A stretch of DNA of 64,000 bases from Candidatus Bathyarchaeota archaeon (GCA_963717465.1 OY970340.1:832001-896000), one strand, 5' to 3'. Shown: positions 5,153 through 55,576, counted from the stretch's first letter. Notes: generated from the sequence alone by a model not told the origin. Translations and numbers: made by a program.

Positions 5153-5255
5153 TGCCGAGGGCAGGGTTTGAACCTGCGACGACTCGGTCTTCAGCTTCGC
5201 CCTCAGTCACAAGAGTAACTGGGTCGAGCGCTCTCCCAGGCTGAGCTACCTCGGC
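5153..5255 (-). tRNA. tRNA-Phe(GAA) with 29-nt intron at position 30/31 (intron 5196-5224)
   Basis: Acceptor GCCGAGG/CCTCGGC; after splicing the anticodon arm is CTCGG-CTGAAGA-CCGAG; bulge-helix-bulge at the junctions. Confidence 0.93.
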
Positions 5256-13538: not shown

Positions 13539-13692
13539 TGGCTAGTTTGTCTCTCGCCAGCCAAATCCCATGCTCATAAAGAGGTATGGTTCTAAAAATC
13601 AACCATCTACAACAGCAAAATAACAAACCCACATATTCAGCAATTAACTTATATACAATTTCAAAATCCAATTCTTAACCGTAAAAGCCGAT

Positions 13693-13783
13693 GGCGTCCT
13701 ACAGCTAGGTGGTCCTGGCATCGGACTTCAAATCCGATGAGTCCGGTAAGGTCTCGGGGTTCAATTCCCCTTGGACGCCGCCA
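13693..13783 (+). tRNA. selC: tRNA-Sec (anticodon UCA), 9/4 archaeal/eukaryotic fold
   Basis: Acceptor GGCGTCCTA/TTGGACGCC (9 bp, one U-U), D stem GCTAGG/CCTGGC (6 bp, 4-nt loop), anticodon stem ATCGGA/TCCGAT (6 bp) with CT-TCA-AA loop, long variable arm, 4-bp T stem GGGG/CCCC, G73, encoded CCA. Confidence 0.95.
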
Positions 13784-15097
13784 TTACTCCACCGTTTTCA
13801 AAACCGTGTCTAAGCGTTCAACTGCCAGTGCAACGTCTTCTTTTTGCATTCCTATGCCAACATCAAAATTGATGTAAGAAGAATGGTATTTTGGGCAGCA
13901 TACTCCAAAATCAGTCGGGTCCAAAGCTCTTGCCCCTGTTACTCTTGACGCGAACAAGGCTTTGCCTATCTTTTTTGCGCTTCTACCATTCAGTGTCATT
14001 GCAACTGAAACTGGATTGTTAACGTTCAACACTCGCTGAGAGTGCTTTTTTGCAGTTTCCACCAAATATTCTTCTAAAAGTTTCCTGTTTTCTTCTTGTT
14101 CACTTCTTAGTTTTTCGTAGCCATCTAATCCCATGGATAATATCGCTGCCAAGAACTGGGCAATAGGAGCTGCAGACGCTCTGCCAGGATAAACGTTAGC
14201 AATTTCATTCATGAATTCTTCGTTGGGCGAAGCAACTATAGCTCCTCCCACTGGCGCAAGAAAATTCTTGTCAGTACTTTGCACTACTGCGTCTACTCGG
14301 CCAGCATCAATTGCGCCTCTGATAAGCTTCATTACTTCTCTGCTTTGCACACCGTAAGCATTGTTTATGATATGTGGAACATTTTTTTCTTTAGCGATCT
14401 TGGCAATTTCCTTTATTTTGTCAGGTTCTCTGGGAGTGAAAAACGTTGTTGTCGATAAAATAGCTGTGGTTTTTTCGGAAACCGCCTCTTCAATTTCCTG
14501 CTCGGGAACGTTAACTGCGTCTCCAAAGATTTTTCCTTCAATAATTTTTTCCTGAAGTCCTGCAAGCCTGATTGCTTTTATAGGAGTTTTATGGTCAACT
14601 CTTGGATACACAACTTCATTTCCACCTTTGCAGTTTCTAGCGGCGCATAAGGTCAGTCCCAGCGCCATTCCTGTTGCAACGGGGAAAACAACTGCCTTTT
14701 TGATGTTTGGAGCTCCAAACCTTCTCATCGCATCGGTTGCCAATTTGTTAGCTAGAAAATACAGCAGTGTTCCTCCTGCTGCCTTAGGCTGCGGCCCAAC
14801 TAAGTCGCCTGTTCTTCCGACACCATGGTGAAATCCAAAAGCAAGTTTGGAGATAAGAGGAGAAGCAACTCTTCCTTCCCTTTCACCTATCCGTGCAGCT
14901 TTGCTATCCTTATCCGAATCCATACCTGATAAGAAATTTAGCAAGCTTTGAATTTGATTGTCACTCCAGCCAGTCTGGGGTATTCTTCTTTGTTCAAAAA
15001 GCGTTTTTATCGGTTTGGACTCTGATTGAAGAACCATCAAACCTCGATCAAGAATTTCCTTAGGAATTGTATCCTTCAATTTTTCAGGCGGTATCAA
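13784..15097 (-). CDS. spcS: O-phosphoseryl-tRNA(Sec) selenium transferase (SepSecS)
   Basis: GEREGRVAS, HGVGRTGDL..QPKAAG, HIINNAYG, PLP-lysine motif QSTDKNF, YPGRAS. Confidence 0.95.
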   Translation of the reverse strand: MIPPEKLKDTIPKEILDRGLMVLQSESKPIKTLFEQRRIPQTGWSDNQIQSLLNFLSGMDSDKDSKAARIGEREGRVASPLISKLAFGFHHGVGRTGDLVGPQPKAAGGTLLYFLANKLATDAMRRFGAPNIKKAVVFPVATGMALGLTLCAARNCKGGNEVVYPRVDHKTPIKAIRLAGLQEKIIEGKIFGDAVNVPEQEIEEAVSEKTTAILSTTTFFTPREPDKIKEIAKIAKEKNVPHIINNAYGVQSREVMKLIRGAIDAGRVDAVVQSTDKNFLAPVGGAIVASPNEEFMNEIANVYPGRASAAPIAQFLAAILSMGLDGYEKLRSEQEENRKLLEEYLVETAKKHSQRVLNVNNPVSVAMTLNGRSAKKIGKALFASRVTGARALDPTDFGVCCPKYHSSYINFDVGIGMQKEDVALAVERLDTVLKTVE

Positions 15098-15153: not shown

Positions 15154-15235
15154 TTTTAGGCTTAATTGATTAGCTTGCCTGCCTATTTTAGGCTTAATTG
15201 ATTAGCTTGCCTGCCTATTTTAGGCTTAACTGATT
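15154..15235. repeat. 32-bp tandem repeat (2 exact copies plus a partial) upstream of SepSecS
   Basis: TTTTAGGCTTAATTGATTAGCTTGCCTGCCTA at 15154 and 15186, partial copy at 15218. Confidence 0.95.
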
Positions 15236-43398: not shown

Positions 43399-44583
43399 TT
43401 AGATTTTAGTGTGTATTTCTACTATATCCCCGTCTTCTAAAACAAAATTCAACCCAACCTTCTTGGGACTAAACGGCAAACGCTTAGCCCAAACCATGGC
43501 AAACATGAAGTTTGAGACAAGCTCCTTATGAATGTTTTTCGCCAATTCGTTAACGGTGGTGCCTCGCTTAAGAGCGAAAGGGTGGTCGCTATGCACCTTG
43601 TTGCCGGGTTCCTTTGTATAAACTCGAATTACGCCTAAAGACTCGAAGAGTGCTTTGCCCAGCGCCTCAAATCCAACCTTTTTCTCGCATGACATGGGCA
43701 CGATAGGCAAATTACCGTTTACATATTTCTCTAAAACTTTCAAGTTATTTGCTGACCCCTTCAAATCTGTCTTGTTCGCGGCAATTACTGCCGGCTTGTA
43801 CGTGGTGGTTTCAAAAATGGCGTCCTCTACATCGTCTAAACTTACTTCGCCGGTGATTTTCACGATTGCATCGTTTATTTTATAGGTGCGTATAAGCTCT
43901 TCGACATCCCGCATGTTGCAATCAAGCAATTTGCCGATAAGAATAATCCTTAAGCCAACTCCAGCATGGCGTCGATCAATCTCTACTTTTCCACTAGGCT
44001 TATTTACTAAAACGCGGCTCTTTTCCAATTCGCCCAAAACCAGCTTCAACTGCTCCACTGGATTATTGGACAAATCAACCATTAAAATTAAGCCATCAGC
44101 ATTGCGTGCCAATCCAAGTGTTACGTGACCTGTTCCGCGTCCATCTGCGCTGCCTTCCATTACTGCTGGTGCTTCGACAATTTGGAATTGCACATCTAAA
44201 TAGCTCATTATGCCCGGTACTGGTTCATGTGTACTGTAAGGCGTAGGTGTAACGAGCACTTTTGAGTTTGTTGTGGCATTCATTAAGCAGCTTTTGCCCA
44301 CGTTTGTTGTGCCGATCAAGGCTATCTGTGCGGAAGCTTCCTTCTCGATGAAAAGTTTCGGTCCGCCACTGCTTTTGCCTGTTCCCATGCGTTTCTTGTG
44401 GTCAAGGTCTTTTTGGATGACTGCCATTCTCTTCTTGATGGTGCCTCGAAGCTTCATAGTGCCTTTATGCTGAGGGACAGTGCTTAGGAATTCCTGCATT
44501 TTCTGCAGTTTCTCTTTTGGGGTATGTGCAGCTTCTACTTCAGCCCATTTATCCAAAGCTTCAGGAGGCAAATTATTTGGCAT
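43399..44583 (-). CDS. DRG/OBG-family GTPase with TGS domain
   Basis: MPNNLPPEA, GTTNVGKS, NKTD; C-terminal TGS (LEDGDIVEIH). Confidence 0.9.
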   Translation of the reverse strand: MPNNLPPEALDKWAEVEAAHTPKEKLQKMQEFLSTVPQHKGTMKLRGTIKKRMAVIQKDLDHKKRMGTGKSSGGPKLFIEKEASAQIALIGTTNVGKSCLMNATTNSKVLVTPTPYSTHEPVPGIMSYLDVQFQIVEAPAVMEGSADGRGTGHVTLGLARNADGLILMVDLSNNPVEQLKLVLGELEKSRVLVNKPSGKVEIDRRHAGVGLRIILIGKLLDCNMRDVEELIRTYKINDAIVKITGEVSLDDVEDAIFETTTYKPAVIAANKTDLKGSANNLKVLEKYVNGNLPIVPMSCEKKVGFEALGKALFESLGVIRVYTKEPGNKVHSDHPFALKRGTTVNELAKNIHKELVSNFMFAMVWAKRLPFSPKKVGLNFVLEDGDIVEIHTKI

Positions 44584-52460: not shown

Positions 52461-53405
52461 ATGGGCTCAATTATGGAAGATTGGGATTTAATAATAATTG
52501 GTGCAGGTGCAGCGGGGCTTGCAGCTGGAATTTACGCTGTTCGAAGCGGCTTGAAAACGTTAATTTTGGATGAAGAACTCGCTGGAGGAGTCCTCGGTAA
52601 AGTTCCGATTGTTGTGAATTACCCTGGTTTTACTGAAATAACTGGTGGAGAACTTGCAGAAAAATTTGCTTTGCAGTGCAAAAAAATAGGCGCCACGATC
52701 CATGAATTAGAAGCAGTAACCAGCTTAGATCTTAGGCAAGAAAAGAAAATTGTAAAGACTTCGCGTTCTATTTATGGTGCTAAAGCGGTCATTATCGCGT
52801 CTGGTTCACATCATAAAGAAATCGGCGTCAAAGGTGAAAAAGAATTTCTCGGAAAAGGCGTTAGTTATTGCGGCGTTTGTGATGGTCCATTTTTTAAAGG
52901 TAAACGCGTTCTGATTGTTGGCGGAGGAAATTCTGCTTGTGTGACTACTTTGTATCTTTCAGGGTTAGCTGCTGAAGTTTTTGTTTCGCATCGAAGAGGG
53001 GCTTTCAGGGCTGAGGAAGCCACAGCGAAGGACATTGCTGCTAAAACTAATGTGACTGTTTTTTGGAATACTGAAGTTAAAGAAATTAAAGGTGAAAAGA
53101 CTGTGACTTCTGTTGTGCTGTACGATAACAAGACTGGGATGACTCGGGAATTGAATGTTGACGGTGTTTTCGTCCAAGTTGGCGAGTCGCCTAAAAGTCA
53201 ACTTGCTAAAGAGTCAGGAGTTGAGGTTGATGATGAAGGCTTTATCAAGATTGATGTTTGCCAGCGAACTAACCTGCTTGGAGTTTTTGCAGCAGGAGAC
53301 GTTTCGAATTATCCTGTTAAACAGATTGGAACCGCCGTTGGTCAAGGAATCATGGCAGCTCTTGAAGCCTATGCCTTCATTCGAAGTCCTTATTATAGGA
53401 AATAG
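52461..53405 (+). CDS. trxB: Thioredoxin reductase
   Basis: IIGAGAAG, GVSYCGVCDG, VGGGNSA, FAAGDV. Confidence 0.93.
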   Translation: MGSIMEDWDLIIIGAGAAGLAAGIYAVRSGLKTLILDEELAGGVLGKVPIVVNYPGFTEITGGELAEKFALQCKKIGATIHELEAVTSLDLRQEKKIVKTSRSIYGAKAVIIASGSHHKEIGVKGEKEFLGKGVSYCGVCDGPFFKGKRVLIVGGGNSACVTTLYLSGLAAEVFVSHRRGAFRAEEATAKDIAAKTNVTVFWNTEVKEIKGEKTVTSVVLYDNKTGMTRELNVDGVFVQVGESPKSQLAKESGVEVDDEGFIKIDVCQRTNLLGVFAAGDVSNYPVKQIGTAVGQGIMAALEAYAFIRSPYYRK

Positions 53406-53492
53406 GTTAAACGTATAGAAAAAAATATATCCTAAACGTTTTCCAAACAAGCACCAGTTAGCGTAGTTCAGGCGAAATGAGGTTCAGGTAAG

Positions 53493-54731
53493 ATGAGTGA
53501 AGAGAAATGTCTAGCCGTAGTGGAAATTAATCAAGATCTTTGCGGTAGATGCTACGTTTGCCAATCGATTTGTCCTTTCGAAGCGATAAAACGCGATTCA
53601 GAAGGAAAAGTCGAAATAAACATTCAAGATTGCCAAGTTTGCGGCATATGCTACAGCGCTTGCCCAACATCCGCAATAAGCATGGATTACTACAACTATG
53701 AAAACCTCTCAAACAGCGTTAAGAAACTCAGAGCTAAAGCAAAAAGTAGCAAACAAATTGCGGGAAAAGACGCAGGCGAGACTCTTGTCTTAATGTGCCG
53801 TGGAAACTCGCCTTCTACAGGCGAAGTTGAGGAAATTCTTAAAGACCAAGGGTTAAAAGTTAACAGTTACATACCGTTAAGGTTACCTTGTTCGGGTCGA
53901 ATCCCGACCAGCTTTATATTTGATGTTCTTAATTCAGGCGTAAAAAATGTTGTTTCCATCCAATGTGAAGACTCTTTTTGCCGCTACAAAGAAGGCACAA
54001 AAATTAACACTCAGCGGCTTTTATTATCAAAAAATGTTCTCAAACAATTAGGCTTCAATGAAGATGCAGTTAAAATCGTAAAATACTCTCGCAAGGCAGT
54101 TTACAACGTCAATGAATGCGTGGGCTGCGATAAATGCATCTTTATTTGCCCCTATAAAGCCTTAGAATTTGAATCTTTCGCGACGCCAAAGGTGATTAAC
54201 GAAAAATGTATGGGTTGCGGCGCATGTCAACTTGTTTGTCCGCATCATGCTATCCAAGTAAAAGGCTTCGAATTTGAAAACGTACTGAAACGTTATGCTA
54301 ACTCGGCATCAAAATTAAGAGCTAAGCGTAATAATCCTGTAATCCTCGCATTTATTTGTCAATGGTCAGAATTTTCAGCCTTAGACAACCCAAACAACAT
54401 TTTCGCGGGCAAAAACGTTTTGGCTCTCGAAGTTCCCTGCTTCAAATCCTTGGATCCGGTTCACGTAGTAAATGCGTTGAACTGCGGTTTTGACGGTGTA
54501 ATGGCTGTTGTCTGCTCATCTAAGGACTGCAAATTACAAGAGGGAAGAGATACTGCAGAGCGAAACATGGGCGTCTTAAAGAACTGTTTGAAAAAGACGG
54601 GTCTTCTCGATCGATTTGAGCTTTTCGAAGAATCCCCACGATGCGCAGGCGACTTCAACAAGAAACTAGACGCGTTTTACGAGAAAATTTCAGCTTTACC
54701 TAAACGCGAAATACTCTTGGAGGCAAAATAA
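53493..54731 (+). CDS. Ferredoxin/MvhD(FlpD)-like tandem fusion protein
   Basis: Four CxxCxxCxxxCP motifs in two pairs; two MvhD-like segments (RLPCSGRI; FICQWS..EVPC..LDP). Confidence 0.8.
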   Translation: MSEEKCLAVVEINQDLCGRCYVCQSICPFEAIKRDSEGKVEINIQDCQVCGICYSACPTSAISMDYYNYENLSNSVKKLRAKAKSSKQIAGKDAGETLVLMCRGNSPSTGEVEEILKDQGLKVNSYIPLRLPCSGRIPTSFIFDVLNSGVKNVVSIQCEDSFCRYKEGTKINTQRLLLSKNVLKQLGFNEDAVKIVKYSRKAVYNVNECVGCDKCIFICPYKALEFESFATPKVINEKCMGCGACQLVCPHHAIQVKGFEFENVLKRYANSASKLRAKRNNPVILAFICQWSEFSALDNPNNIFAGKNVLALEVPCFKSLDPVHVVNALNCGFDGVMAVVCSSKDCKLQEGRDTAERNMGVLKNCLKKTGLLDRFELFEESPRCAGDFNKKLDAFYEKISALPKREILLEAK

Positions 54732-55576
54732 TGTACAAAATAGTAAATAAAAAAGAACTTGCCCCAAAAATAAAACTCTTTGAAGTCGACGCTCCAGACA
54801 TAGCGTCTAAATCTGCAGTTGGTCAATTCCTAATAGTTATACATAATAAAACAGGCGAACGCATTCCCTTAACCATATGCGGATACGACACCGCTAAAGG
54901 AACCGTTTCATTCGCTTTCCACGAAGTTGGTAAAACAACTCAAACGCTTGGCTTGCTAAGCAAAGGCGAATGCATAGACAACGTTACTGGTCCACTTGGA
55001 AATCCCTCTGAAATAAAAAAGTTCGGCAAAGTTCTCTGTGTAGGCGGAAGCGTTATGATTGCTCCACTGCTTTTGCAGGCTAAAGCCATGAAAGAAGCTG
55101 GAAACAATGTTACCACGATTATAGGTGCTCGGACAAAAGACTTCATCATGATGGAAGATGAAGCAAAAGCATTAAGCGACATTGTTTATGTGGCGACAGA
55201 TGATGGTTCCAAAGGTTACAAGGGATTAGATTTCCTTAAAGAATTATTGAAGAAAGAAAAATTTGATCGCTGCGTAGTCATGGGTCCAGTTATCTTAATG
55301 AAAGATGTCAGCGAAATAACCAAGCCGTACGGTATACCGACAATAGTCACTTTAACACCCATAATGATTGATGGCATGGGAATGTGCGGCGTATGCCGTG
55401 TCACAGTCGGCGGCAAAATGCTTTTCGGCTGCATAGATGGACCGGAATTCGATGGTCACAAAACCGATTTTAACGAGTTAATTTTACGTCAACGAATGAT
55501 GCTTCCCGAAGAACGCTTAAGTTCTGTTCTGTGGGACATGCGAGGAGGTTGTAAATGTGGCAGAAACAAAGCCTAA
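54731..55576 (+). CDS. NfnA/SudB-like FAD/NAD and 2Fe-2S subunit
   Basis: GQF, GERIPLT, GPLG, DGMGMCGVCRV...CIDGPEF. Confidence 0.9.
   Translation: MYKIVNKKELAPKIKLFEVDAPDIASKSAVGQFLIVIHNKTGERIPLTICGYDTAKGTVSFAFHEVGKTTQTLGLLSKGECIDNVTGPLGNPSEIKKFGKVLCVGGSVMIAPLLLQAKAMKEAGNNVTTIIGARTKDFIMMEDEAKALSDIVYVATDDGSKGYKGLDFLKELLKKEKFDRCVVMGPVILMKDVSEITKPYGIPTIVTLTPIMIDGMGMCGVCRVTVGGKMLFGCIDGPEFDGHKTDFNELILRQRMMLPEERLSSVLWDMRGGCKCGRNKA

Follow-up and report, generated by a model that had tools for sequence, protein, structure and literature searches.

A selenocysteine (Sec) system in 'diverse Bathyarchaeota', with PSTK and aSelB fused, was reported by Mukai et al. (2022, Front Genet, PMC8762117, sections 3.4.1-3.4.2). 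The same paper, in the parts cited here, describes a U6:U67 mismatch in the tRNA-Sec of a Bathyarchaeota 'wetland sediment lineage' and proposes that the fusion protects O-phosphoseryl-tRNA-Sec (Sep-tRNA-Sec) from SepCysS where SepCysE is missing; the corresponding part of a review (PMC9499178) repeats these points on the Bathyarchaeota Sec system. The 2022 report is easy to miss, and a 2026 review (PMC13188914) omits the lineage in its cited portion, giving the Sec-using archaea as Methanococcales, Methanopyrales and Asgard only. Names of Sec-machinery proteins are already attached to proteins of Bathyarchaeia metagenome-assembled genomes at NCBI, and a search of the literature on selenocysteine and selenoproteins in Bathyarchaeia/Bathyarchaeota found no paper on a selenoproteome or on selenocysteine insertion sequence (SECIS) elements. 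The present analysis concerns a window of 64,000 nucleotides (C1:832,001-896,000; GCA_963717465.1, OY970340.1) from an organism labelled Candidatus Bathyarchaeota archaeon, in which a tRNA-Sec gene and a SepSecS gene lie tail to tail at window positions 13693-15097.

This locus is very probably the core of a working Sec system of the archaeal/eukaryal type in a Bathyarchaeon. The novelty for the lineage that had been entertained in the preliminary description is not borne out, Sec use in Bathyarchaeota having been published in the cited sections of the 2022 paper; the biology is unaffected. The trait is thus already on record and the locus is largely ordinary within the known system. What is added here is a conserved gene junction, figures for the distribution of the system, a mismatch with the published SepCysS rationale, and an orphan second module elsewhere in the genome.

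The tRNA-Sec gene (anticodon UCA) occupies positions 13693-13783 on the plus strand. Rfam model RF01852 matched 13693-13779 (+) over all 91 model positions with 71.8 bits (E 9.6e-13; gathering score 47), and ARAGORN called a tRNA-SeC with anticodon tca at 13695-13779. On the RF01852 alignment the acceptor stem has 9 bp, the T stem 4 bp, and the D and anticodon stems 6 bp each; the D loop has 4 nt and the variable arm is long. This is the 9/4 form of archaea and eukaryotes. The 3' end consists of G73 at 13780 followed by a genome-encoded CCA at 13781-13783. The anticodon, stem lengths, variable arm and G73 all agree with the preliminary description; a detail absent from it is a U.U mismatch in the eighth acceptor pair, at the U6:U67 position of eukaryotic numbering.

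Covariation was counted on the 9/4 cloverleaf across 20 tRNA-Sec genes of related genomes, 17 of them distinct. In the distinct sequences 95.5% of cells were paired and 8 of the 30 pairs had changed at both positions. These values were never attained in 500 shuffles, and the paired fraction in slid controls was 27-51%. The eighth acceptor pair is a pyrimidine-pyrimidine mismatch in 16 of the 17 distinct sequences, and all 20 aligned genes encode G73-CCA. An encoded CCA is common in this genome, where 27 of 46 other tRNA calls have an NCCA end. Upstream of the gene, a TATA-box-like TTATATA at 13649-13655 (+), 38-44 nt before the mature 5' end, is a putative tRNA-Sec promoter; similarly placed AAATTATATAT / TTATATAT elements occur upstream of tRNA-Sec in genomes G131, G107, G332 and G443 and at locus L011.

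Detection of tRNA-Sec in the relatives depended on the program used. ARAGORN missed the gene at 7 of 23 loci, and Rfam recovered four of these over its cut-off (L014, L039, L044, L046); L011 is not among the misses, its tRNA-Sec having been called by ARAGORN. Matches of about 40 bits that might have been taken for second Sec tRNAs in relatives were rejected, being tRNA-Ser(UGA). Three genomes of other Bathyarchaeia families, G442 (L068 227-340), G223 (L044 3284-3393) and G051 (L070 1501-1593), carry an intron-like insertion in the T arm of tRNA-Sec; their acceptor stems are fully paired, without the U.U mismatch. ARAGORN missed all three, while Rfam gave 59.3 bits for G223 and scores below cut-off for G442 and G051. 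A second, degraded tRNA-Sec-like copy in G083 (L073 1501-1590; 46.7 bits) has a disrupted T stem and lies 1 kb from the intact copy.

The SepSecS gene (O-phosphoseryl-tRNA(Sec) selenium transferase) occupies 13784-15097 on the minus strand and encodes 437 aa. Against PF05889 the protein scored 399.9 bits (E 1.3e-119). On the equivalog TIGR03531, where the cut-off is 224.85, it reached 489.2 bits over profile positions 2-443 of 444, and its residues 8-433 aligned with the solved SepSecS chain 2z67 (E 8.4e-102). The lysine of the (S/T)xDKN motif in SepSecS binds pyridoxal phosphate (PLP), and this motif is kept: QSTDKNF is in register with SSDKNL of 2z67 and SLDKNF of 3bc8. The gene is therefore the intact SepSecS, with its PLP lysine in STDKNF, that had been recognized at the outset. 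The remark that it looked eukaryote- or Asgard-like holds in part. The GEREGRVAS stretch is identical in chain 3bc8, which we take to be mouse SepSecS, and reads GEREARTYS in 2z67, presumably, like 4ac9, from Methanococcus maripaludis; over its whole length, by contrast, the better match is 2z67 (344 bits, as against 295 bits for 3bc8). By homology the enzyme would convert Sep-tRNA-Sec to Sec-tRNA-Sec. In the spacer upstream of SepSecS, positions 15154-15235 hold a 32-nt tandem repeat (2.6 copies, 98% matches); lying near the place that PSTK-aSelB usually takes in relatives, this region may mark a rearrangement.

The remaining components were found in the same genome outside the window. SelD lies at C1:951,672-952,481 (240 bits; cut-off 125) and contains one in-frame TGA at C1:951,702 (L004 1531). 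Sixty nucleotides downstream of SelD is an open reading frame (ORF) of 732 aa that fuses PSTK to aSelB, with a KTI12/PSTK domain at residues 9-219, GTP_EFTU at 277-441, domain 2 and aSelB_III; the 59-nt spacer after SelD is AT-rich. The kinase domain matched PF08433 (KTI12) with E 1.1e-34, and its P-loop GLPASGKTT is conserved across 85 aligned homologs. Residues 276-727 could be aligned to positions 19-478 of 4ac9, an archaeal SelB chain of 482 residues (E 2.4e-79), and the elongation-factor part is therefore full-length and of the short archaeal type, without the bacterial winged-helix extension. The fusion gene is 105 kb from SepSecS in this genome, beside SelD, as against 0.3-0.8 kb from SepSecS in most relatives. 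No SelA over its cut-off was found in the genome, and the best SepRS and SepCysS scores there were 50 bits (cut-off 381) and 60 bits (cut-off 301). SelD and the Sec elongation factor, expected if the locus works, are thus both present, and a probable PSTK occurs as a domain fused to aSelB.

The genome was scanned for in-frame TGAs flanked by coding-like sequence, and the energy of hairpins after each TGA was then computed. Thirteen UGAs stood out, each followed at about 6 nt by a hairpin of -16 to -25.8 kcal/mol inside the coding sequence. A single HdrA/MvhD gene accounts for two of them, and eleven paralogous molybdopterin-enzyme loci contribute one each. Among 350 TGA stops of ORFs of at least 250 aa, a control set that includes at least one true site, no more than 5 reached -16 kcal/mol. 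Read with TGA as Sec, the HdrA/MvhD gene encodes 854 aa with two UGAs, the second inside its FlpD domain (674-797), and one of the molybdopterin paralogs encodes 771 aa, of which the PF00384 match at 74-487 spans the UGA; the eleven loci share the UGA context of this 771-aa enzyme. Within the window itself, three adjacent genes at 52461-55573 (+) encode a flavoprotein (Pyr_redox_2), a polyferredoxin of 412 aa carrying an MvhD/FlpD domain, and an Fe-S protein of the DHODB type. In contrast to the HdrA/MvhD selenoprotein gene, which lies in another part of the genome, the gene of the MvhD-like polyferredoxin contains no in-frame TGA.

Because SelD, PSTK-aSelB and selenoprotein genes share a genome with tRNA-Sec and SepSecS, UGA is almost certainly read as selenocysteine in this organism. 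This reading, by the PSTK/SepSecS route, had been anticipated from the locus alone; it is now supported by SelD with its TGA, by the fusion and by selenoprotein domains that span UGA, and in-frame TGAs were found in HdrA/MvhD and the eleven molybdopterin-enzyme loci. All pathway genes are present and intact, the tRNA fold is supported by covariation, and the UGAs lie inside conserved domains. We infer each enzymatic step from family membership, and presume that the genes are expressed. SerRS, for which the long variable arm and G73 are known determinants, would charge tRNA-Sec (UCA) with serine, and the N-terminal PSTK domain of the fusion would phosphorylate the charged tRNA. SepSecS, as a PLP enzyme, would then use selenophosphate from SelD to form Sec-tRNA-Sec, which the aSelB part of the same fusion would deliver to in-frame UGA codons.

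Some observations weigh against this assignment of a complete working system. The PSTK domain scored 151 bits on TIGR03574, below the equivalog cut-off of 290.5, a result that might be expected of a fused, diverged form. The SelD UGA is followed by a weak hairpin only (-9.2 kcal/mol, compared with -6.1 +/- 3.4 in controls). A search of the genome found no SelB-wing_3 domain and no known SECIS-binding module, with only two ORFs of the L7Ae family; aSelB itself has only the short archaeal domain IV. A strong post-UGA hairpin was looked for in SelD: the energy is that given above, and no stem is common to the Sec-type SelD genes of 5 relatives.

Of 120 genomes from the genus to which this one belongs, 10 have SepSecS over the cut-off, 6 of them among the 73 of high quality. 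In the sample of 401 genomes from the class Bathyarchaeia the number is 15, drawn from at least five families and from 8 of 132 genera; the trait is confined to a minority, about 4% of the sampled species of the class. Among 21 SepSecS-positive genomes, the PSTK-aSelB fusion is present in all, interrupted by TAA or split in two of them, tRNA-Sec exceeds the Rfam cut-off in 18 and SelD occurs in 20; an in-frame TGA was found in 7 of these 20 SelD matches and none in the other 13. This patchy record bears on the view that tRNA-Sec and SepSecS are relics of a lost trait, UGA serving only as a stop. Such a relic would suit both the rarity of SepSecS, from which it follows that losses must be frequent, and the relatives' SelD matches without an in-frame TGA, but it is highly improbable for a genome in which none of the five components is damaged, SelD itself depends on read-through of a UGA, thirteen UGAs fall within conserved domains of otherwise full-length enzymes and tRNA-Sec shows compensatory changes.

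The fusion is universal among the sampled Sec-using Bathyarchaeia, and SepRS and SepCysS were both over cut-off in only one of the 21 fusion-bearing genomes (G130). Because the two enzymes are missing in the other 20, the published rationale of protection from SepCysS is undercut: the fusion is kept where the pathway from which it was supposed to shield the tRNA is absent.

The window belongs to a single contig of 3,053,889 bp (completeness 88%, contamination 1%). The source organism is a Bathyarchaeon. The six closest SepSecS-bearing contigs (71-74% identity) have Candidatus Bathyarchaeia or Bathyarchaeota in their titles, except for one labelled Limnocylindrales, and the named SepSecS protein matches are likewise Bathyarchaeia/Bathyarchaeota, the closest SepSecS being at 71-88% identity. 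A housekeeping Drg-type GTPase 29 kb from the locus (window 43402-44583, minus strand) gave eight named sequences among its top 120 matches, of which seven were Bathyarchaeia/Bathyarchaeota and one 'Binatia'. The placement suspected from the sequence is borne out by both sets of matches. An artefact of assembly or binning, by which a Sec locus of another organism such as an Asgard archaeon was joined to a Bathyarchaeon contig, might be suspected from the next-nearest named SepSecS proteins, which come from Asgard archaea (Freyarchaeum, Jordarchaeales; about 57-59% identity), and from the evidently wrong bin labels (Limnocylindrales, Nanoarchaeia) on some relatives' contigs. It has an even slighter chance of being correct than the relic explanation: the genome consists of a single 3.05-Mb contig, contamination is 1%, and GC content does not shift across the locus (0.37-0.44). 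In addition, 13 other genomes of this family and one further contig show the same junction, and both the closest SepSecS and the matches of the GTPase 29 kb away point to Bathyarchaeia. With its complete machinery, this closed 3-Mb genome of a Bathyarchaeon is a clean reference for the lineage.

Some public records of evident Bathyarchaeia sequences carry other names: L014 is labelled Limnocylindrales bacterium, P0147 Nanoarchaeia archaeon and P0311 Binatia bacterium, and these labels are probably binning errors. Introns are present in several tRNAs of the genome studied here. At window positions 5153-5255 (-) Rfam found a tRNA (46.4 bits) that ARAGORN missed until introns were allowed, when it called tRNA-Thr(tgt) with an intron.

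The two genes of the locus are convergent and meet without a gap. Immediately after the encoded CCA, the TTA at 13784-13786 corresponds to the TAA stop codon of SepSecS on the minus strand, confirming the abutment given in the preliminary description. A zero-gap junction was found in 14 of the 19 genomes in which the primary tRNA-Sec could be located, comprising 13 genomes from three genera of one family and locus L011. The exceptions take several forms. In G108 the genes are 375 nt apart, and the tRNA still adjoins a remnant or duplicated piece of the SepSecS 3' end; G083 (L035 843-1483) has a 554-nt insertion, with a duplicated SepSecS 3'-end remnant beside the tRNA; and in G321 the tRNA is on a different contig from SepSecS, where it immediately precedes the fusion gene and is followed by a SepSecS 3'-end remnant of 15 nt. 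A gap of 57 nt separates the genes in G177, and in G223 they are on the same strand. The abutment is ancestral to this Bathyarchaeia family, often kept, and dispensable.

The tail-to-tail junction is an inherited compact arrangement that keeps the tRNA linked to its modifying enzyme. Counting against any need for this linkage, the abutment is not required, because G108, G083 and G321 broke the junction without losing either gene. A regulatory role, through an antisense 3' untranslated region (UTR) or transcriptional interference, is possible. In its strong form, in which antisense SepSecS mRNA or polymerase collision couples the level of the enzyme to that of tRNA-Sec, the proposal is quite unlikely. 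It draws on the recurrence of the exact G73-CCA/stop contact in 14 of 19 genomes of three genera in one family, on the remnants that persist in two rearranged genomes and on the fact that any SepSecS 3' UTR is necessarily complementary to the tRNA, but both genes remain intact in three genomes where they stand 375-554 nt apart or on different contigs and in other families that use a 57-nt gap or the same strand, and a T-run terminator is not conserved. A shared bidirectional T-run terminator within the SepSecS 3' end was considered separately and is unsupported, TTTT occurring within 20 nt past the CCA at 6 of the 14 zero-gap junctions.

The genome contains a second module outside the window. 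A second tRNA-Sec gene at C1:2,829,638-2,829,725 on the minus strand (L002 2321-2408), called by ARAGORN and by Rfam with 61.8 bits, has compensatory changes in acceptor pairs 4 and 5 and one extra D-stem base. Downstream of it, at a distance of 83 nt, follows a second PSTK-aSelB gene (paralog 2) at C1:2,827,363-2,829,555 on the same strand (L002 46-2238), identified as an ORF and by homolog alignment, which encodes 730 aa and is 54% identical to the first fusion (paralog 1). Two full copies of the fusion occur in this genome only among the 21; G443 has two tRNA-Sec genes and one fusion. In a collection of 5.8 billion proteins paralog 2 had no relative above 55% identity, and paralog 1 had one at 90%.

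The two copies were compared on an alignment of 85 homologs, from which 5 of 90 matches shorter than 650 aa had been dropped. The G1 motif GHVDHGKT and the G3 motif VDLPGH are each found in 84 of the 85 aligned homologs. In paralog 2 the GTPase motifs read GHCKHGKT, VEMPGN and SKID, and the RGMT of switch I is lost, as are the Asp of G3 and the catalytic His; it keeps 50 of the 68 family-invariant G-domain columns, compared with 67 of 68 for paralog 1, and 36 of 43 invariant columns of the kinase domain. A FastTree phylogeny of 87 sequences, with the root set on the ten homologs that share 36-39% identity, placed paralog 2 outside a 74-tip clade that holds paralog 1, with a support of 0.999. 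The terminal branch of paralog 2 is long (0.59) and its root-to-tip length is ordinary (1.11; median 1.02). This ordinary length and the position outside the 74-tip clade indicate that paralog 2 is an old paralog or a transfer from an unsampled lineage, as judged from its sequence, and on the same grounds a fast-evolving recent duplicate was rejected. A decaying pseudogene is unlikely, since its frame of 730 codons is open at 46% divergence.

The second module lies in a same-strand array of HdrC-like, HdrB-like, corrinoid protein and RACo-type activase genes that also holds a 416-aa corrinoid methyltransferase-like gene with two internal UGAs and no Pfam match. The HdrB-like gene (L131 14329-15318, minus strand; two CCG domains) was rejected as a selenoprotein: the TGAs, at residues 23 and 29 of the extended frame, precede the conserved N-terminus KYAFFPGC. 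The first ATG call is too short, and most likely these upstream TGAs are non-coding and the true start is downstream. If functional, paralog 2 would represent a GTPase-dead branch that acts as a kinase and holds the tRNA, and it might store, regulate or dedicate the supply of Sec-tRNA for its operon. It is a speculative thought, with a modest chance of being right, that the genome runs two non-identical Sec modules and that the fusion serves in general to pass the tRNA on from the kinase, by way of SepSecS, to the elongation factor, not to fend off SepCysS.

The closest described system is that of the Bathyarchaeota in the cited sections of Mukai et al. (2022, PMC8762117), with which the present one shares a PSTK-aSelB in one ORF, the U6:U67 mismatch and a SepSecS of the Bathyarchaeota/Asgard branch. 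It differs in that the fusion is there tied to SepRS/SepCysS without SepCysE, while here SepRS and SepCysS are under their cut-offs. The paper draws a typical gene cluster in its Fig. 9B; in the text of the paper and of its supplement, as far as consulted, there is no mention of the stop/CCA abutment, of two tRNA-Sec genes or of a second fusion.

With Methanococcales and Methanopyrus the system has in common the two-step PSTK/SepSecS route, a SepSecS nearest to 2z67 and an aSelB that is full length on 4ac9 with a short domain IV. Those archaea have separate PSTK, SepSecS and aSelB genes and a SECIS in the 3' UTR, whereas here PSTK is fused to aSelB and strong in-gene hairpins directly follow the UGA. 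The D stem has 6 bp, compared with the 7 bp given as usual for archaea in the cited part of PMC9499178, and CCA is encoded, in contrast to the archaeal tRNA-Sec described there.

In comparison with Asgard and eukaryotic systems the fused PSTK again sets the present one apart, and no SBP2-like protein was found in the genome, its two L7Ae-family ORFs being the only ones of that family. The intron-like T-arm insertions found in tRNA-Sec genes from other families of Bathyarchaeia are reminiscent of the intron that the same part of PMC9499178 describes for Lokiarchaeota. The likenesses to Asgard archaea and eukaryotes extend to both genes of the locus: in the tRNA they are the 9/4 fold, the D stem of 6 bp and the U6:U67 mismatch, which the cited parts of PMC8762117 and PMC9499178 treat as a eukaryotic feature, and SepSecS has the GEREGRVAS stretch of 3bc8 and finds its nearest counterparts outside Bathyarchaeia among the Asgard archaea.

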